From an uncultured Methanosarcinales archaeon (lineage in GTDB: Archaea > Nanobdellota > Nanobdellia > Woesearchaeales > JACPBV01), in assembly GCA_964492935.1 (NCBI GenBank), contig CAZBLF010000002.1, forward strand, positions 45,449-65,448: DNA of 20,000 nt, given 5' to 3'. The notes under the pieces were generated by a model. It was not told where the DNA came from and made no database searches. It saw only the letters and a list, made by a program, of their open reading frames with translations. Position numbers and translations under genes: made by a program. Positions within the stretch are counted from its first letter, which is position 1; the number at the start of each line of letters is the position of its first letter. Positions 7,285 to 16,737 of the stretch are shown here, piece after piece.

Positions 7285-7308
7285 GACATAACCATTCTCA
7301 AACAACAA

Positions 7309-7318
7309 TATTTATAAA
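7309..7318 (+). promoter_or_regulatory. Putative archaeal TATA box upstream of carA
   Basis: TATTTATAAA at 7309-7318 in the intergenic region. SD AGGAGG at 7413-7418 precedes carA. Confidence 0.5.
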
Positions 7319-7423
7319 GCATTTCAGAGTCTATCTTATTTTTGAGATGACGTTACGATTTTCACCCAATCCCATTCTAAAGTTCGTTCTAAACATCTCT
7401 ATTTCTGACGTAAGGAGGCTACA

Positions 7424-8500
7424 ATGTACGCAGTTCTAGCCCTCAAAGACGGAACTATTTTTGAAGGCAAAGGCTTCGGTGCTATTAAAGAAACCGCCGG
7501 CGAAGTAGTCTTCAACACCTCCCTCGTCGGCTATGAAGAGTCACTTACCGACCCCTCTTACAAAGGCCAGCTCCTAACACTAACCTATCCGTTAGTAGGA
7601 AATTACGGCGTAAGAAAAGAACATTTCGAATCAGACAAAATCCAGGTGCAAGGATTTATCGTACGCGAGTTCCAGGAACACCACGCCCATAAAGACGCAA
7701 CCAAAACCATTCACGAATTTCTAAAGGAACACAATATTCCAGGCATCTCAGATATCGACACCCGTATGCTTACAATCAAAATCAGAGAGCACGGAGTCAT
7801 CAATGGTTGCATAAAAACCAGCGACAAACCCATAGACACCGCAGCATTAGTAAAAAAAGCAAAAGAGCTAGATGACTACGGAGAAAAGAATCTCCTACCA
7901 GAAGTTTCTGTTCGCGCCCCCGAGTTCATCGATGCAAAAGGAGAAAAAACAATCGCCATGATCGACACCGGAGTTAAACTTTCAATCATCAGAAATTTCA
8001 CGAAAAGAAAAATTAACGTTTGGAGATTTCCCTACAACACTACAGCAAATGAAATAAGAGAAAAGAACGTACAAGGACTCTTCATCGCCAACGGCCCAGG
8101 CAATCCAGAACAAGCAACAGAAGCAATCGAGGCAGTAAAACAACTAAAGGAAGAACTCCCCATCACCGGAATCTGCCTAGGAAATCAGATAGTTGCTTTA
8201 GCATTAGGCGGAAAAACCTACAAATTAAAGTTCGGCCACCGTGGAACAAATCAACCGGTAAAGAATATCAAAGAAAACAAAGTCTACATAACGAGCCAGA
8301 ACCACGGATTCGCCGTAGACAAAGAATCACTACGCAACACAGACTTAGAAGTCTCTTATATCAATCTCAACGATGGCAGCGTAGAAGGAATGCAACATAA
8401 ATCTCTACCCATCCAAACCGTCCAGATGCACCCCGAAGCGAATCCCGGACCGCAGGATACAAACGGATTTTTTGATGACATAGTGAGGAATCTAAAATGA
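7424..8500 (+). CDS. carA: Carbamoyl-phosphate synthase small subunit
   Basis: GEVVFNT, YEESLTDPSYKGQ, TYPLVGNYG, NGPGNP, catalytic GICLGNQ, KFGHRG, TSQNHGF and HPEA. Confidence 0.97.
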   Translation: MYAVLALKDGTIFEGKGFGAIKETAGEVVFNTSLVGYEESLTDPSYKGQLLTLTYPLVGNYGVRKEHFESDKIQVQGFIVREFQEHHAHKDATKTIHEFLKEHNIPGISDIDTRMLTIKIREHGVINGCIKTSDKPIDTAALVKKAKELDDYGEKNLLPEVSVRAPEFIDAKGEKTIAMIDTGVKLSIIRNFTKRKINVWRFPYNTTANEIREKNVQGLFIANGPGNPEQATEAIEAVKQLKEELPITGICLGNQIVALALGGKTYKLKFGHRGTNQPVKNIKENKVYITSQNHGFAVDKESLRNTDLEVSYINLNDGSVEGMQHKSLPIQTVQMHPEANPGPQDTNGFFDDIVRNLK

Positions 8501-9782
8501 CCCAAGCGATGCCCAATAACAACACTCTTCATCAAGCTAACAACAGTTTTAAGAACTTCAATATTCCAATAATAGGCAATCTTATGAATAATGAACTTAA
8601 ACCAAATGAATCTGAGATGAAAGAAATACATTTTTGGGAGCTTCCAGACACAGTCAGATTGAGATTAAATCTTGAATCTTTACATCATCTATTCAAATCC
8701 TCTGATCCAGTGAGTACAGCGGAGAGGTTGGGGATATCGAAATCATATCTAAACCATTTGAAGAATGGCAGGCACGCAATAAAGCCCTCTCAACTACTAA
8801 TCCTTACGAGGCTTTTTGAGAAAGACCCCTTAGAAGTAGAGAAGCAAATAATTTCGATGAACTCAACTCGAGGAGGGCAAGCAAGATGCACGTTACCAAT
8901 CGGGCAAATGAAGAAATTGCCTCGCTGATAGGCCATTACTATGGAGATGGAAGCATCATTACAAAAAAGCCCCAGTTCAAATTTTGCAATTTTGATAAGG
9001 TCTCTCTAAACGAAGTGAAATTGTTAGTAGCAAAGCAATTCGAGTCAACACCCATTAATGTAACTGAGACTACAGTTACTTATTCCACAATTATCGGAGA
9101 GATACTCCTTCTATTTGGTGCACAGCGAGGAAGTAAACTTAAGCTAAAAAATGATGTCCCTACCTGGATCACAAACGGAAGCGATGGTGTGAAAAGCAGG
9201 TTTGTGAGAGCGTTGTTTGACGACGACGGATCAGTTTCTTCTTCCGGGAACAATAAGAACATTAATTTCCACCAAATAGTCTTCGATGAGTACAATCAGT
9301 ACTCTATAAGATTCTTAAAATCCGTGGTCAAGATACTAGAAGGATTTGAGATAATTACTCATGGACCTTACTTATCCAGAAAATACCAGATTAGCCAAAA
9401 GGAAAGGAATGTAAATTTCTTAATTATCTCGGACTGGAAGAGTCTGGAAAATTATAAGAGGAAAGTAGATTTTTTTCACTCAAAGAAAAAGAAAAGAATA
9501 ATTGATGTATTATCAAGAAAAAAGACACTGGGAAAACACGAAAGAAATCTCTTATACAAAAAGATTATCCACTTGTTCCATCCTGAAGAAGAACCATTAT
9601 CAACGGCATTCATTTCCGAAAAATTGGACATCTCCACAAGAGCAGCCCTCAAAAGGTTGAAGAATCTTCAAAGCAACAAAAAAGTGACCTTCGAAGGAAG
9701 AGTCCGAAACCGATCATTTTTATGGAAACTAAATGGAGGTGAAACCAAATACCCAAAAGACAAGATATCAAAAAAATCTTAG
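8497..9782 (+). mobile_element. Free-standing LAGLIDADG homing-endonuclease gene (HTH + two LAGLIDADG motifs + C-terminal winged HTH), split by a -1 frameshift near 8900
   Basis: ORF 8497-8928 has an HTH (TAERLGISKSYLNHLKNG). ORF 8886-9782 has ASLIGHYYGDGS, RFVRALFDDDGS and a C-terminal HTH. TTA CCA ATC GG GCA AAT GAA GAA is one base short of a continuous LPIxANEEIASLIG. A TTTTAAGA box at 8547-8554 lies upstream of in-frame ATGs at 8584 and 8617. It sits between carA and carB, which are commonly adjacent. Confidence 0.8.
9735..9742 (+). promoter_or_regulatory. Strong Shine-Dalgarno GGAGGTGA for carB, inside the endonuclease ORF
   Basis: GGAGGTGA lies 6 nt before ATA CCC AAA AGA (the MPKR start of CarB) at 9749. 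Confidence 0.75.
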
Positions 9783-12700
9783 TGATTGGTTCAGGCCCAA
9801 TTCAAATCGGACAAGCCGCTGAATATCCTTAATAGGAATCAGAGTCGACTACTCCGGTACGCAAGCCTGCAAAGCACTAAGGGAGGAAGGCTATAAAGTT
9901 GTTTTAGTAAATAGCAATCCAGCCACAATCATGACCGATGCCGACATGGCAGACGCAGTCTACATAGAACCCCTAACCGTAGAGATCGTAGAAAAAATAA
10001 TCATAAAGGAAAAGCCAGATGGCATTCTGCCAACGATGGGCGGCCAAACCGGATTAAATCTAGCAGTACAGCTACACCAACAAGGAATTCTCAAAAAACA
10101 CCACGTAGAACCACTCGGAACATCAATAGAATCCATCGAGCAAGGAGAAGACAGAGAACTGTTCAAAAAACTCTGCATAGATATTGGAGAACCTATTCCC
10201 GAATCAAAAACCGTAGAAAATCTCAAACAAGCAAAAGCATTCGAGAAAGAATGCGGACTCCCGATAGTCATCCGTCCAGCCTACACCCTCGGAGGCACTG
10301 GAGGAGGAATAGCACATACACCAGAAGAATTCGAAACCATTACCCAACACGGAATCAATCTCAGCCCCATCAAGCAAGTCTTATTAGAAAAAGCAATCCT
10401 TGGCACCGAGGGCTGGGGAGAATTCGAGTTTGAAGTGATGCGCGATAAGAACGACAACTGCATCATCATCTGTCCCATGGAAAACCTCGACGCCATGGGC
10501 ATCCACACCGGCGAGTCCATTGTAACGGCTCCAACGCAAACCCTCAACGATAAAGAATTCCAAACTCTAAGAACATCCGCAATCAAAGTAATCAGAGCAC
10601 TAAAAGTAGAGGGCGGCTGCAACATCCAGTTCTCATTCAACTACCATACTGGAGAATACGTCATCATCGAAGTCAATCCGCGTGTCTCACGATCATCAGC
10701 CCTAGCATCTAAAGCAACCGGCTACCCCATAGCAAGAATCGCTACAAAAATTGCAATAGGAATGACACTAGATGAAATTCCTAACGATGTAACCAAAGAA
10801 ACCAAAGCATGCTTCGAGCCCACAATCGACTACACCGTAGTCAAAATTCCGAGATGGCCCTTCGACAAATTCCCTACCGTAGACAAGCGCATCGGCACCC
10901 AGATGAAATCCACCGGAGAGACCATGGCGATCGGCAGAACGTTCGAAGAAGCCCTCCAAAAAGCAATCAGATCGCTAGAAGTAGACAGATTCGGATTAGG
11001 CCACGACCCCAAAGACCGCATCTGCGAAAACAAAGAGGAAATCATTCAAAATCTCAAAGTTCCAACACATAAAAGACTCATGTATATCCGAGATGCGTTT
11101 GCACTCGGCATGAACGAAGAAGAAGTAAAAGCACTCACCGGCATCAACACCTGGTTCCTCACCAAAATAAAAAACATCTACGAGCACGCCAACACCATCA
11201 CCAAAGAAAAAGAATCAATAAGAGAAGCAAAAAGAAAAGGATTTTCCGACGTCCAAATAGCAAAAATCACAAACACAAGTGAAAAAGAAATCAGAACGTT
11301 AAGAAAAGAACACAACATCCTCCCTACCTACAAAATGGTAGACACGTGTGCCGCAGAGTTCGAAGCAAAAACGCCCTATCTCTATGGAACCTACGAGCAA
11401 GAAGATGAATCCAAACCCACCAACAAAAAGAAAGTAATCATCATTGGTGGAGGCCCCATCCGAATCGGCCAAGGAATAGAATTCGATTATTGTTGTGTCC
11501 ACAGCGTCTTTGCCTTACAAGAAGAAGGCTACGAAGCCATCATTGTAAACAATAACCCAGAAACCGTTTCAACCGACTTCGATACCTCTGATAAACTCTA
11601 CTTCGAACCCTTAATTTTCGAAGACGTCATGAATATCATCGAACGAGAGCAACCGCATGGAGTAATCCTACAATTCGGTGGACAAACGCCCATTAACATG
11701 GCGATGCGCCTACAAGAAGAGGGAGTCAAAATACTGGGAACACAACCCGGGAGCATCGACACCGCAGAAAATAGAGATAAGTTCGGCGCAATCCTAGAAA
11801 CATTAAAGATTCCCAGTGCCCCCTGGGGAACCGCGAGATCAATAAATGAAGCCTTACTCAAAGCAGGCAACATCGGCTATCCCGTACTCGTAAGACCTTC
11901 CTACGTTCTCGGAGGTAGAGCAATGCAAATCGTAACGAGCGATGAAGAATTAAAGGCATATATGGAGGAAGCCGTAAAGATTTCCCCCGACCATCCCGTT
12001 CTCGTAGACAAGTACCTAGCAAACGCACTAGAACTTGATGTAGATGCATTGTGCGATGGCAAGCAAGTCTATGTCGCAGCCATCATGGAGCACATCGAGG
12101 AAGCCGGCGTACACTCCGGAGATTCAGCCTGCGTCATCCCTCCACAAAGCCTTAAACCAGAAGTCAAACAAAAAGTCATCGACTACACCAAGAAACTAGC
12201 TCTAGCTCTCAAGACAATTGGATTAATCAATATCCAATATGCAGTAAAGGATGACGTCGTCTATATTCTAGAAGCAAATCCTCGTTCATCAAGAACCATC
12301 CCCTATGTCAGCAAATCCATAGGAAAGCCCATGGCAAAAATTGCAACCCAGGTACTTCTTGGAAAAACCCTAGACGAACTAAATCTAGGAGACTATACCG
12401 AACCCACCTTCACCACCGTCAAGCAAGTCGTCTTTCCCTTTCTTAAATTACAGGGAGTTGATCCCATACTAGGACCAGAAATGAAATCCACCGGAGAGGT
12501 CATGGGAATAGATACCTCCTTCGGCAAAGCCCTCTTCAAAGGCTTCGAAGCAGCCCAGATGAAACTGCCGAAGCAAGGCAACATCATGGTTGCAATCGGA
12601 AGAGATGACCACAAAGAACAAGCCGTGGACTGGGCAAAAAGCCTAATCGAGATGGGCTTCAAGCTCTTTTGCACACCCGGAACGCGAGACGTCTTCATCA

Positions 12701-12972
12701 AGCACAACATCCCTTCAACCACCGTACCCAAAATCAGAGAGGACCCCATGATACTTGACATGATGAAGCGCAACCAAATTCATATGGTGATCAACCTCCA
12801 TCGCGGCTCCCATCCAAGAACCGACAGCTACACCATAAGACGAAAGTGCATAGAATTAAACATCCCTCTACTAACACGAATGCCCACCGCAAAAGCCGCA
12901 ATAAAAGCAATCACTTCGATGAAAGACCAAGAGTATGATGTAAAGTCGCTGCAAGCCTTTTACGCAGACTGA
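9749..12972 (+). CDS. carB: Carbamoyl-phosphate synthase large subunit; join(9749..9824, 9845..12972), 1067 aa, ATA start
   Basis: Exon 1 reads (M)[24 protein letters not shown]. Exon 2 continues (F)[31 protein letters not shown] into the 9931-12972 ORF, which has [34 protein letters not shown] and an MGS domain. Confidence 0.93.
9825..9844 (+). other. Putative 20-nt bulge-helix-bulge (tRNA-type) intron in carB mRNA
   Basis: Removing ATCCTTAATAGGAATCAGAG restores GAA TTC GAC TAC (EFDY) and the frame. The central helix CTGA(9819-22)/TCAG(9839-42) is flanked by 3-nt bulges AT^A and AG^T, with inner stem TCCT/AGGA and exon stem AGCCG/CGACT. Confidence 0.85.
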
Positions 12973-13039
12973 CACACACCACAATTTCTCAAACAAAAGA
13001 CTAACACATAAAAACAAACCCTAATTAACTCACCACTTC

Positions 13040-13108
13040 GTGACGAAAAAACCTATACAACTACTTGAAAAGCCGAAAAATATTGACGGAAAGCATTTAA
13101 GGGAGTAA
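13040..13108 (+). pseudogene. Short ORF MTKKPIQLLEKPKNIDGKHLRE*, possibly the stranded original 5' end of lhr
   Basis: GTG start ~27-30 nt after an ACATAAAAA box. AAT ATT GAC GGA AAG C resembles lhr AAC ACG GAC GAA GAG C (11/16 identical), and PKN occurs in both. Confidence 0.4.
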
Positions 13109-13134
13109 CACACTCCGTATTTTCCCAGTCATTC

Positions 13135-13162
13135 TGAAATCCATACTCAAGCGGTGATTTCA
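13135..13162 (+). promoter_or_regulatory. Hairpin overlapping the SD of the second LAGLIDADG gene
   Basis: TGAAATC (13135-41) pairs with GATTTCA (13156-62). The SD GGTGA is at 13153-57 and the ATG at 13164. Confidence 0.5.
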
Positions 13163-13163
13163 A

Positions 13164-14231
13164 ATGAAAAAAGAAAAAAACGAAAACAAAAGTGTCCTTT
13201 ACGATGGGCTTTCTCGCCGAGAAATTATTGGCGCTTGGAAGAACACAATGGACACCAGAAAGAAGACTGGACTTGGACAGAGAGAGCTAGCGAGGCTTCT
13301 ACTAACTGAGCACCAACTAGAGATCTCAGAAAGCACTATATCGGGATGGATTCATAAGCATGTTGTTCCCTTTGCGCAAGAGAAAACACAATTCAAACCA
13401 AAACCTATTCCTCCAAAAAAGGTGCTCGAAAAGCTGTATATCCACAATCAGAAAAGTGCAAGCACGATCGCAAAGAAGTTCCATGTGTCTACAATTATTG
13501 TTATCAATTGGCTGAAAAAATACGGGGTCCGAGTAAGATCTCACACAGAATCCATGAATACAAGTATTATCCAGAGCGTATTAAGGGATCAAAAAGTGAC
13601 TAGGCCCACCAGAGAGTATGGTAAGCTCTCTCCCGAAAAGGCATATATTCTTGGAGTACTCTGCGGCGATGGATACATCGATCATAAATTCATGAAGCTC
13701 GAGATTAGAAGAGACCTTGATTTTATGAACGAATTCATTAGATGTGTTGAGGAGGTATACGGTTTACGATACAAGCACTATTACTACAAGCACAGAAATA
13801 GCTATATTGTGAACGTGAACGCTCAAATTATTTGCAAAGATTTACTCAACCACGACACCTTCCGAACTCGAACATGGAGAGTCCCTAAAGCAATATCTGA
13901 ATCAAAGAGCAAGGGAGTGGTGAGCCATTTCCTAAGAGCACTCTTTGACAGCGATGGTTCTTCTAGTGGATCAACCGTAAACATGACGCTTGCGAATGGA
14001 AGTGCATTAAGAGAGGTATCGTCGCTTCTTACAAAACTAAACATTTCCAATAGGGTGAAAACTCGAAGCCCTTACAGCACACTAACGATATCACATAAGG
14101 ACAACCTAAGAAAATTCATAGAAGAAATCGGATTCACCATTCAAAGAAAAAATGATAGAACCAAAAAATACATACAACACGGACGAAGAGCTGTACGGTC
14201 TTTTGCACCCCATAGTCAAAAAGTGGTTTAA
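13164..14231 (+). mobile_element. Free-standing LAGLIDADG homing-endonuclease gene with two N-terminal HTH modules (intact, 355 aa)
   Basis: HTHs GLGQRELARLL...ISESTISGWI and LEKLYIHNQKSASTIAKKFHVS..VINWLKKYGV. LAGLIDADG motifs AYILGVLCGDG and HFLRALFDSDGS. Overlaps lhr by 80 nt. Confidence 0.85.
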
Positions 14232-16737
14232 GAGGAAGTTTAAGACGTTCGCGAAAGCCCAGAAATGCGCGATAATGCCAATCCATAATCGCGAGAACGT
14301 GTTAGTTTCATCTCCAACCGGATCCGGCAAAACGTTAACAGCATTCATGGCCATTCTCAACGAATTAGTAGACTCCTCGGAAAAGAACATTCTTGAGGAT
14401 AGAGTTTATGCTGTTTACATAAGTCCGCTTAAGGCACTTTCTTCAGACATCCACCACAATCTCATCGAACCCCTAGAAGAGATGGAAAAATCCGCAAAGA
14501 AAGAGCTCAATATCAGAGTTGGTGTACGAACCGGCGACACCACCCCCTACCAACGATCAAAGATGCTCAAGAACCCGCCCCACATTCTCATCACAACGCC
14601 AGAATCCCTAGCTATCTTAATCTGCTCCCCAAAATTCCAGGAACATCTCAAAAAAGTAGAGTGGTTTATCTTAGATGAAGCCCACGCCATCGCAGAAAAC
14701 AAGCGAGGAGTCCACGCATCTATCGTCATGGAACAACTCTCCCAACTCTCTCCCCACATGTGTCGCATCGGATTATCCGCAACCATCTCACCACTCGAAA
14801 AGATAGCACATTTCCTTGTCGGTAACGATAAGGGTAAACCAAGACCTTGCAAATTAGTAGATGTGCAATACCTCAAAGAAATCGACCTCAAAGTCATGTC
14901 ACCCGTCAAAGATCTCATTGGCGTCGAGCACACCTTAATGCACAACTCCATGTACAAGTTAATTAACAAATTAGTACAAGACCACAAGACAACCCTAATC
15001 TTCACCAACACCCGAGCTGCAACCGAACGGGTAGTCCACAACCTCAAAGATAAATATCCGAAAAACTACGACGAAAACATAGGAGCACATCACGGTTCTC
15101 TAAGTAAAGAACTCAGATTAGATATCGAAGAAAGATTACGAGCAGGAAAAGTAAAGGTAGTTGTTTGTTCAACCTCTTTAGAATTAGGAATCGACATCGG
15201 TTCTATTGACTTAGTTATCTGCCTAGGCTCTCCAAAATCAGTTGCGCGAGCATTACAACGAGTAGGACGATCCGGTCACCGACTAACAGCAAAAACCAAG
15301 GGAAGAATAATTGTACTAAACCGAGACGACCTCATCGAATGTTCCGTCTTAGTAAAAGATGCAATCGAAAAGAAGATCGACCGCATCCACATCCCGAATA
15401 ACTGTCTCGACGTCCTAGCCCAGCAAATCTACGCAATAGCCATCCAGGATAAAATCCAAGTAAATGACCTTTTCAACATGATTACGAGATCATACTGCTA
15501 CCGAGATCTAGACCGAAAAGACTTCCAGGACGTTATAGATTACTTAGCAGGCAAGTTCGTCTCCTTAGAAGACCGCTACATCTACGCCAAGATCTGGTAC
15601 GACGAAGACACCGGCATGATTGGTAGAAAGGGAAAGATGGCAAGAGTCATCTACATGACCAACATCGGAACCATCCCAGAATCAATTGCTGTACGCGTTA
15701 AAATCGGCGATCAACCCGTAGGTACCATTGAAGAAGCCTTTCTAGAAAAGCTCAGACCAGGAGACGTCTTCCTATTAGGTGGAAACACCTACCAGTTCAA
15801 GTTTGCGCGCGGGATGGTCGCCCAAGTCTCTGCGTCCGTCAACCGACCACCCAATGTTCCGGCATGGTTCTCCGAAATGTTGCCATTAAGCTATGATCTA
15901 GCAAGCGACATCGGCAAGTTCAGAAGACTTATTAGCCAACAATTCGATGCAAATAAGAAAAAGCCAGAAATTCTAGAATGGATTCACGAGTATCTCTATG
16001 TAGATCAAAAAGCGGCTGAATCAATTTACAGTTACTTCGACGAACAACACAAGTTCGCAAAAATCCCCTCAGATTCCAGAATCATTGTCGAACACTACAT
16101 CGATGGAACCGGAAAACGATTTTCCGTCTTCCATTCCCTCTTTGGTCGCAGGGTAAACGACTGCCTATCAAGAGCAGTAGCCTTCGCCATCGGCAGAACC
16201 CAACACAAAGACGTAGAGATCGGCATCAGCGACAACGGCTTCTATATCATCGCTCCCGGAAAAGTAAATGTGCTGAAAGCCTTTAAACTCCTAAAAAGCA
16301 AAGACCTCAGAAAAGTAATGAATATGGCCATTGACAAAACAGAAGTTCTGAAACGAAGATTCAGACACTGCGCAGCACGTTCACTCATGATCTTAAGAAA
16401 CTACAAAGGCAGAAGAAAGTACGTTGGCAGACAACAAGTAAGTTCAATGATCCTATTAAGCGCTGTAAGAAGAATCTCCCAACACTTCTCCATCCTCAAA
16501 GAAGCCAGAAGAGAAGTCCTAGAAGACTTAATGGATATCGACAATGCCCAAATCATCGTAGAAAAAATAGAGAAGAAAGGCATCAAGATAGAGGAGTTCA
16601 CAACGGAAATACCAAGCCCCTTCGCATTAAATCTAGTAACACAAGGCAAGACCGACATCATGAAGATCGAAGACAAAACAGAATTCTTACGAAGAATGCA
16701 CAATGAGATTCTGGCAAAGATTAGTTTGAAGAAGTGA
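14152..16737 (+). CDS. lhr: Lhr-like ATP-dependent SF2 helicase
   Basis: SPTGSGKT, YISPLKAL, RTGDT, ITTPESL, DEAH, GLSAT, FTNTR, HHGSLS, SLELGIDIG, QRVGRSGH and LDVLAQ. Confidence 0.92.
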   Translation: MIEPKNTYNTDEELYGLLHPIVKKWFKRKFKTFAKAQKCAIMPIHNRENVLVSSPTGSGKTLTAFMAILNELVDSSEKNILEDRVYAVYISPLKALSSDIHHNLIEPLEEMEKSAKKELNIRVGVRTGDTTPYQRSKMLKNPPHILITTPESLAILICSPKFQEHLKKVEWFILDEAHAIAENKRGVHASIVMEQLSQLSPHMCRIGLSATISPLEKIAHFLVGNDKGKPRPCKLVDVQYLKEIDLKVMSPVKDLIGVEHTLMHNSMYKLINKLVQDHKTTLIFTNTRAATERVVHNLKDKYPKNYDENIGAHHGSLSKELRLDIEERLRAGKVKVVVCSTSLELGIDIGSIDLVICLGSPKSVARALQRVGRSGHRLTAKTKGRIIVLNRDDLIECSVLVKDAIEKKIDRIHIPNNCLDVLAQQIYAIAIQDKIQVNDLFNMITRSYCYRDLDRKDFQDVIDYLAGKFVSLEDRYIYAKIWYDEDTGMIGRKGKMARVIYMTNIGTIPESIAVRVKIGDQPVGTIEEAFLEKLRPGDVFLLGGNTYQFKFARGMVAQVSASVNRPPNVPAWFSEMLPLSYDLASDIGKFRRLISQQFDANKKKPEILEWIHEYLYVDQKAAESIYSYFDEQHKFAKIPSDSRIIVEHYIDGTGKRFSVFHSLFGRRVNDCLSRAVAFAIGRTQHKDVEIGISDNGFYIIAPGKVNVLKAFKLLKSKDLRKVMNMAIDKTEVLKRRFRHCAARSLMILRNYKGRRKYVGRQQVSSMILLSAVRRISQHFSILKEARREVLEDLMDIDNAQIIVEKIEKKGIKIEEFTTEIPSPFALNLVTQGKTDIMKIEDKTEFLRRMHNEILAKISLKK

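Follow-up and report, generated by a model that had tools for sequence, protein, structure and literature searches.

We identified a probable intron of 20 nucleotides (nt), of the bulge-helix-bulge (BHB) type, inside the carbamoyl-phosphate synthetase gene carB of an uncultured archaeon. The DNA studied here, referred to as the window, is a stretch of 20,000 nt taken from contig 2 of genome G000 (positions 45449-65448; assembly of 1.15 Mb, 42% G+C, 84.8% completeness), and it was also found in marine, seawater and hydrothermal-vent metagenomes. We propose that positions 9825-9844 of the window are a BHB mini-intron in the carB pre-messenger RNA, cut out by the splicing endonuclease EndA and sealed by RtcB, and we put the probability of this reading at roughly 80%; the cleavage and ligation themselves we infer. 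The reading agrees with the geometry of the predicted fold, the register demanded by the protein, the presence of EndA and RtcB genes in the host, the recovery of the insert in real DNA, purifying selection on carB, and structure-conserving inserts in relatives. A first-pass annotation of the window had already interpreted the insert as an intron, and that part of it stands, although it passed over a wider family of carB introns in DPANN archaea, an adjoining LAGLIDADG gene and the missing canonical start codon of carB.

The interruption was confirmed by re-reading and translating the sequence. The insert splits the carB motif GQAAE/FDYSG, introduces two stop codons in tandem (TAA at 9830-9832 and TAG at 9833-9835) and shifts the frame, so that the upstream frame, which opens at 9743, ends in YP followed by the two stops and DYSGTQACK resumes in another frame from 9847. 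Among the possible 20-nt deletion registers, removal of 9825-9844 yields GAA T/TC GAC (EFD), as the first-pass annotation had argued, while the neighbouring registers give EVD or EYD and lose the invariant Phe. The paralogous GQGIEFDY motif to which it had appealed is present in the second half of carB. Its estimate that gene callers would cost the protein 54 amino acids (aa) is correct if the open reading frame (ORF) is taken to start at ATG 9931.

RNAfold of positions 9808-9862 returned exactly the structure previously drawn for this site, both as the minimum free energy (MFE) structure and as the centroid. The outer stem, formed between the exons, pairs 9814-9818 with 9846-9850 as 2 + 2 base pairs (bp) around a C9816-A9848 mismatch, and is followed by four more distal pairs. 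The central helix, CUGA/UCAG, joins exon bases 9819-9822 to intron bases 9839-9842 and lies between two bulges of 3 nt on opposite strands, AUA at 9823-9825 on the 5' side and AGU at 9843-9845 on the 3' side. The intron is closed by a hairpin, UCCU-UAAU-AGGA, with a 4-bp stem (9826-9829/9834-9837) and a loop at 9830-9833. We found that the two junctions demanded by the protein are, as had been claimed, the positions at which EndA would cut: cleavage after the second base of each bulge would leave GQAAEFDYSG in frame, and this is the only BHB solution for the window. In the proposed mechanism, the carB transcript would fold so that exon CUGA pairs with intron UCAG between the two bulges, EndA would cut at 9824/9825 and 9844/9845, and RtcB would join the exons to give GCU GAA UUC GAC UAC and hence full-length CarB, with the predicted junction GCCGCTGAAT/TCGACTAC. 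A search of Rfam at E <= 1 over positions 7300-14400 returned no match, and thus no group I or group II ribozyme model.

The geometry at the required register is rare by chance. When the insert was shuffled, a 4-bp central helix fell at that register in 2,714 of 200,000 trials, and in only 47 of the 200,000 was it abutted by an inner helix of 4 bp or more; random inserts of genome composition gave the helix plus abutting inner helix at that register in 168 of 200,000. The enzymes needed are encoded in the host genome, which has genes for EndA (99.8 bits) and RtcB (575.7 bits), the rtcB gene itself having no interruption. Several observations nevertheless count against an intron. The fold departs slightly from the ideal motif, as A9838 is unpaired on the 3' strand between the inner and central helices, and its energy is unremarkable (z = -1.56; equalled or bettered by 17 of 200 shuffles). 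A single gene of the EndA family was found in the genome (an ORF of 219 aa on contig 25). The carB frame contains no ATG, GTG or TTG before GTG 9782, the expected Met codon being ATA at 9749-9751, so that expression of carB would need a second unusual step. In addition, all the counts given below draw on related genomes, which are not independent samples.

The first-pass annotation had suggested that carB of relatives might carry covarying introns at the same position, and comparison revealed 25 same-site inserts, the window's included, all compatible with a BHB and showing compensatory changes. We screened 401 genomes of the order to which the window belongs and found carB in 101, G000 counted. 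The set of loci examined consists of 94 order genomes, six family members and the window (101 loci in all); G317, G178, G094, G137, G083 and G036 were left out, either because a contig ends at the N-terminal part of carB or because no more than the C-terminal half was listed. The relatives' records are labelled Candidatus Woesearchaeota or Nanoarchaeota, that is, DPANN archaea. Inserts between GSG and DYSG occur at 15 of the 101 loci and at two sites: eight loci have an insert at site 2 only (E/F; the window, G011, G297, G368, G040, G360, G262 and G330), three at site 1 only (GSGA/(L/I)KIG; G163, G156 and G174) and four at both (G370, G396, G283 and G191). The remaining 86 loci are intron-less, five of them from unpublished genomes (G005, G013, G325, G145 and G220). 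A BHB cut that restores the consensus protein exists for all 15 insert-bearing loci, under a loose filter that required at least three of the four central pairs and that let in two-intron alternatives at two site-2 loci as well as at those of site 1. The single-intron solution is unique in six of the eight loci with a site-2 insert alone, the window among them.

The 25 introns at site 2, comprising 12 from the locus set and 13 recovered by the endonuclease search described below, range from 17 to 42 nt. Their central helix has 4 bp in 22 cases and 3 bp in the other three, and every one of them has an inner helix of 3 bp or more directly next to the bulge; the 3-nt bulges, likewise found in 25 of 25, follow from the construction of the search. 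The interiors of these introns are highly variable (24 distinct sequences among the 25, with at least eight unrelated stem sequences), and in the central helix the intron strand changes along with the exon, with GGCG facing CGCC, CGCU or CGUC, GCCG facing CGGC, GGUG facing CACC and, in the window and G011, CUGA facing UCAG. These last two proteins have AAEF instead of AGEF and their introns lie one base later, in phase 1, the other 23 being in phase 0. RNAalifold, applied to the 16 introns of 17-23 nt, recovered the outer, central and inner helices, with changes on both sides at four inner pairs; the apparent breaks of the two phase-1 sequences in the central columns reflect nothing more than their one-base offset in the alignment. 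These comparisons indicate that structure, rather than sequence, is conserved among the site-2 introns. The 35 nt flanking the intron in the window differ at one position from G011 and at six from the same-genus genome G001; elsewhere the gene is more similar to that of G001. We did not count this pattern as evidence of a co-conversion tract, as the same bases form the BHB helices and structural constraint explains it equally well.

Site 1 lies 24 nt upstream of site 2. Its inserts are 29-35 nt long (loci L090, L110 and L122, from G163, G156 and G174 respectively, and L137-L140), and their BHB is relaxed, with 3 bp, a G-A mismatch and hardly any outer helix. Other changes of frame were seen elsewhere in carB, near residues 146-162 and 320-338 in G359 (L141) and near residues 476-537 in L163, and carB of G016 (L076) has about 280 extra bases in frame.

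The genes around the intron are, in order, carA, a helix-turn-helix (HTH)-LAGLIDADG gene in two overlapping ORFs, carB, a second LAGLIDADG ORF and an Lhr-type helicase gene. The features considered here are as follows:

7424-8500, plus strand: carA, the small subunit, intact (ORF list and domain scan).
8497-9782, plus strand: HTH-LAGLIDADG homing-endonuclease gene between carA and carB, split as ORFs 8497-8928 and 8886-9782 (HTH_3 and LAGLIDADG_3 domains; homologues).
9735-9742, plus strand: Shine-Dalgarno-like GGAGGTGA, six bases 5' of ATA 9749 (reading of the sequence; spacing matched in G011 and G007).
9749-9824, plus strand: carB exon 1, including the first base of the Phe codon (translation; alignment to the MPKR/MKR starts of relatives).
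9814-9850, plus strand: predicted BHB motif (MFE and centroid structure; shuffle control).
9825-9844, plus strand: predicted BHB mini-intron, 20 nt, phase 1, GAA-T/TC-GAC (stops, frameshift, fold and restoring BHB cut).
9845-12972 (end of the stop codon), plus strand: carB exon 2, about 1,042 codons without a stop (CPSase_L_D2, D1, D3 and MGS domains; identity to G001).
13164-14231, plus strand: second, unrelated LAGLIDADG ORF between carB and lhr (domain scan).

The LAGLIDADG_3 ORF at 8886-9782 ends 43 nt before the intron, and its stop codon (TAG at 9780-9782) overlaps carB exon 1. To place this neighbour in context, the first upstream ORF with 100 aa or more was scanned against Pfam at 98 of the 101 carB loci. 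Of the 12 loci with a site-2 intron, six (the window, G011, G297, G360, G330 and G370) have a LAGLIDADG_3 gene as the nearest upstream neighbour; among the 86 intron-less loci, a LAGLIDADG gene occupies this place in none. At three of the seven site-1 loci (G163, G156 and G191) its place is taken by an HNH_repeat gene (PF18780); L122 could not be judged for an upstream endonuclease as the locus ends at a contig edge. A profile built from the six LAGLIDADG proteins was then scanned over one genome per prokaryotic species and gave 20 loci. In 18 of these carB lies directly downstream, and all 18 carry a site-2 BHB insert of 17-42 nt; five of the genomes had already been counted and 13 were new, with record titles that include Micrarchaeota, Iainarchaeum and one 'Methanosarcinales' metagenome-assembled genome. 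The distribution is patchy at the level of the genus, as the endonuclease gene and intron are present in G000 and absent from G001, present in G360 and absent from G389, and present in G011 and absent from the unpublished G005 and G013. In G001 carB is uninterrupted and its ATG start overlaps the carA stop, with neither insert nor endonuclease gene. We conclude that the carB intron is a member of a family that extends across DPANN archaea and is linked with a homing-endonuclease gene.

Given this association, we lean slightly towards the view that the intron and the upstream LAGLIDADG gene together form a protective mobile cassette. The endonuclease, whose specificity is putative, would cut intron-less carB at the conserved site coding for GQAxEFDYSG; the intron would shield its own allele by splitting that target; and the endonuclease gene would be carried over along with the intron during repair, in the manner of 'collaborative homing'. 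In G000 the intron would then be a fixed passenger that the host must splice. Collaborative homing of a free-standing endonuclease with an endonuclease-less intron is exemplified by F-CphI and the psbA intron of cyanophages, and a related case is MobA with the bypass cassette of phage T4 gene 60. As in those systems, a conserved gene, here carB, has a short insert that would be removed without harm and a free-standing endonuclease gene next to it, and insert and endonuclease gene occur or are missing together. Unlike them, the carB insert would be a BHB intron spliced by the host, neither a self-splicing group I intron nor a bypassed segment, and its carriers are cellular archaea and not phages.

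Three observations speak against the cassette. An HNH_repeat gene also lies upstream of carB in G086, which has no insert. Five intron-bearing loci have ordinary upstream neighbours (NUDIX, HAD, NYN or a small ORF) and lack the endonuclease gene there. Finally, the endonuclease gene of the window is one base shorter near 8905-8910 than the intact 363-aa homologue of G011, a deletion that separates it into an HTH ORF and a LAGLIDADG ORF; contigs of runs X4 and X7 cover this point unchanged. Homing-endonuclease genes decay once fixed, and the gene in the window is probably decaying. With its endonuclease gene frameshifted, the cassette of the window is probably no longer mobile.

An alternative, which we consider rather unlikely, is that the intron is spliced without being the protective partner of the endonuclease. 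The endonuclease might home to the carA-carB junction alone, with the intron, 75 nt away, simply co-converted, or the intron might once have contained the endonuclease gene. This would account for the five intron-bearing loci without an upstream endonuclease gene and for G370 and G191, which have introns at both sites and a single type of endonuclease. It also gains from the start of the endonuclease gene: its frame begins at an ATG overlapping the carA stop and contains, a few codons in, ATGCCCAA (8509-8516), and the carB start ATACCCAA (9749-9756) is the same sequence with ATA for ATG. This repeat looks like a duplicated carB start produced by insertion of the endonuclease gene at this point, leaving the endonuclease on the start codon coupled to carA. 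On the other hand, two endonuclease families pair with two intron sites (LAGLIDADG with E/F, HNH_repeat with GSGA/L), the E/F intron accompanies all 18 carB-adjacent LAGLIDADG homologues, and both sites lie in invariant protein motifs, which are typical homing targets. All of this is also compatible with hitch-hiking of the intron.

The start of carB bears on whether the gene is expressed. ATA 9749 aligns with the Met of MPKR in relatives, and the codon at this position is ATA in the window, ATC in G011 (L005) and ATT in G007 (L007), with a GGTGA Shine-Dalgarno core six bases ahead of it in all three, which points to near-cognate AUH codons as initiators in this carB family. We prefer AUA 9749 as the likely start on account of the position of the MPKR Met and the spacing of GGAGGTGA, which is matched in G011 and G007. 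Alternatively, translation may re-initiate at GUG 9782, which overlaps the endonuclease stop within TAGTG. We also considered a large BHB intron joining ATG 8497 or 8509 to CCC 9752, which would have accounted for the absent start codon; by eye, all six registers allowed by the repeated CCCAA lack a central helix, and we dropped the idea, the conservation of the upstream bases being better accounted for by the Shine-Dalgarno-like sequence six bases ahead of ATA. G007 itself has neither endonuclease gene nor intron, and its carA and carB are about 214 nt apart, an interval that may be the scar of a lost cassette.

A missing start and a stop-bearing insert are two defects within the first 100 nt of carB, and could be read as two lesions (the insert and an ATG-to-ATA change) in a recently inactivated pseudogene with an incidental BHB-like fold. 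DPANN archaea often lose biosynthetic genes, and carB is present in only 101 of the 401 genomes of the order. We regard this explanation as very unlikely. The roughly 1,042 codons downstream contain no stop or frameshift, the CarB proteins of G001 and the window are 91% identical over residues 26-1069, and the ratio of nonsynonymous to synonymous substitution rates (dN/dS) between the two genes is 0.054 (dS 1.12; 1,041 aligned codons), from which we conclude that carB is under purifying selection and is not a dead gene. A second copy of carB was looked for in the assembly and not found. The genome also has intact carA and carbamoyltransferase genes. Further, same-site inserts occur in 24 other genomes, where one cut rule would excise every insert and compensatory changes are seen; chance would produce the geometry at the required register in about 2 to 8 of 10,000 cases; and the ATA, ATC or ATT starts with identical Shine-Dalgarno spacing recur in G011 and G007.

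It is also conceivable, if extremely improbable, that the insert is kept in the messenger RNA and skipped in translation, whether the ribosome hops over it, as in phage T4 gene 60, or some other recoding takes place. The stop soon after the break and the hairpin in the insert superficially resemble gene 60, and cassettes of an endonuclease plus an insert in phage T4 reportedly use bypassing (Bonocora et al., in 2011, are said to have described this). However, the insert has no matching take-off and landing codons, and landing on the downstream GAA or GAG leads to the wrong frame. Across relatives, moreover, insert length varies freely from 17 to 42 nt while the 4-bp helix and the two 3-nt bulges are conserved and co-vary with the exon, a pattern that fits a structure-specific RNA endonuclease and not a ribosome. 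Lastly, we give practically no weight to an assembly or sequencing artefact, for which nothing was found in favour, as Logan contigs of four runs from four studies, one of which (X4) may be the source sample, span 9814-9850 without differences, missing letters or joints, in line with the earlier assumption that the insert is present in the DNA.

Splicing of this kind has a precedent in the cbf5 pre-messenger RNA of Crenarchaeota (Watanabe 2002; Yoshinari 2006; Yokobori 2009). The last of these papers (PMC2738675) describes a BHB intron there whose fold uses exon bases and which EndA cuts between the second and third bulge residues; the introns, found in Desulfurococcales and Sulfolobales, have a variable interior, a patchy occurrence among relatives and mostly relaxed motifs. 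The carB intron resembles them in its predicted BHB fold with exon bases, the same predicted cut rule, a variable interior and a patchy distribution. It differs in its host gene, in occurring in DPANN archaea (Woesearchaeota-type), in its near-canonical motif, in the adjacent free-standing homing-endonuclease gene and in that its splicing is a prediction. In BHB motifs of pre-tRNA, the central helix is formed by bases of the 5' exon and the 3' part of the intron. The carB intron shares with archaeal tRNA introns this arrangement, the size range, the hBHBh' geometry and, by prediction, the EndA and RtcB enzymes, and differs in lying within a messenger RNA reading frame, where the cut register is also bound by codon phase. 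Archaeal rRNA genes contain BHB introns that encode LAGLIDADG endonucleases such as I-DmoI. There, too, a LAGLIDADG endonuclease is associated with a BHB intron, but its gene lies inside a long intron, whereas at carB it lies outside the gene and the intron is 20 nt. PMC6125680 reports group I introns with LAGLIDADG genes in rRNA genes of DPANN archaea.

The literature searched, supplementary files not covered, held no paper that deals with BHB introns of carB or of DPANN protein-coding genes. Within that literature, splicing of an archaeal protein gene by the tRNA endonuclease is documented for crenarchaeal cbf5 alone. If our interpretation is correct, carB would be a second BHB-spliced gene, with many independent instances over several DPANN lineages, and BHB splicing of messenger RNA would be no crenarchaeal curiosity. 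A core metabolic enzyme would have become dependent on the tRNA-splicing machinery, apparent carB pseudogenes and truncations in metabolic reconstructions of DPANN archaea would be explained, and the introns would provide natural EndA substrates of 17-42 nt in a coding context. Homing-endonuclease partners would also offer a testable route for the origin and spread of BHB introns in messenger RNA. More generally, we regard it as an even bet that collaborative homing operates in DPANN archaea, with LAGLIDADG (E/F) and HNH-repeat (GSGA/L) endonucleases, all free-standing, spreading in company with very short BHB introns which the host splices and which interrupt the endonucleases' own targets. 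The tRNA-type introns in messenger RNA would then have arisen as immunity inserts of selfish endonucleases, and the LAGLIDADG genes found next to intron-bearing tRNA genes in G000 would represent this system at work on tRNA genes.

The second LAGLIDADG ORF of the window (13164-14231) encodes 355 aa and overlaps the start of lhr by 80 nt. None of the other 100 carB loci yielded a homologue of it, and carB and lhr lie next to each other in G001, with no ORF between them. This ORF may not be part of the carB cassette. We considered an in-frame insert in lhr and rejected it, as residues 7-400 align with G001 over 394 codons and leave no room for one.

A scan of the genome for further BHB mini-introns in coding sequences, an extension that the first-pass annotation had proposed, combined motif geometry with ORF joining. 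It recovered the carB intron and gave 17,344 raw candidates, of which 422, mostly at gene boundaries, passed stricter filters. Two candidates beside other LAGLIDADG genes were checked, in an Obg-like GTPase gene on contig C36 and a ribulose-phosphate epimerase gene on contig C6; both proved false, the N-termini of the proteins being normal.

Two long tRNA introns, with no LAGLIDADG_3 match inside either, were predicted by aragorn, one of 1,063 nt in tRNA-Glu (C4:3226-4386) and one of 1,316 nt in tRNA-Leu (C18:10423-11830). The pairing of an endonuclease with a BHB intron may act on tRNA genes of G000 too. LAGLIDADG_3 has 18 matches in this genome, at about 16 places (on contigs that include C1, C2, C6, C11 and C16). 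Four of these lie within 150 nt of tRNA genes for which aragorn predicts an intron (Gln at C2:42228, Lys at C6:16679, Asn at C1:88348 and Leu at C16:9335), and a fifth is located about 530 nt from a tRNA-Met on C11.

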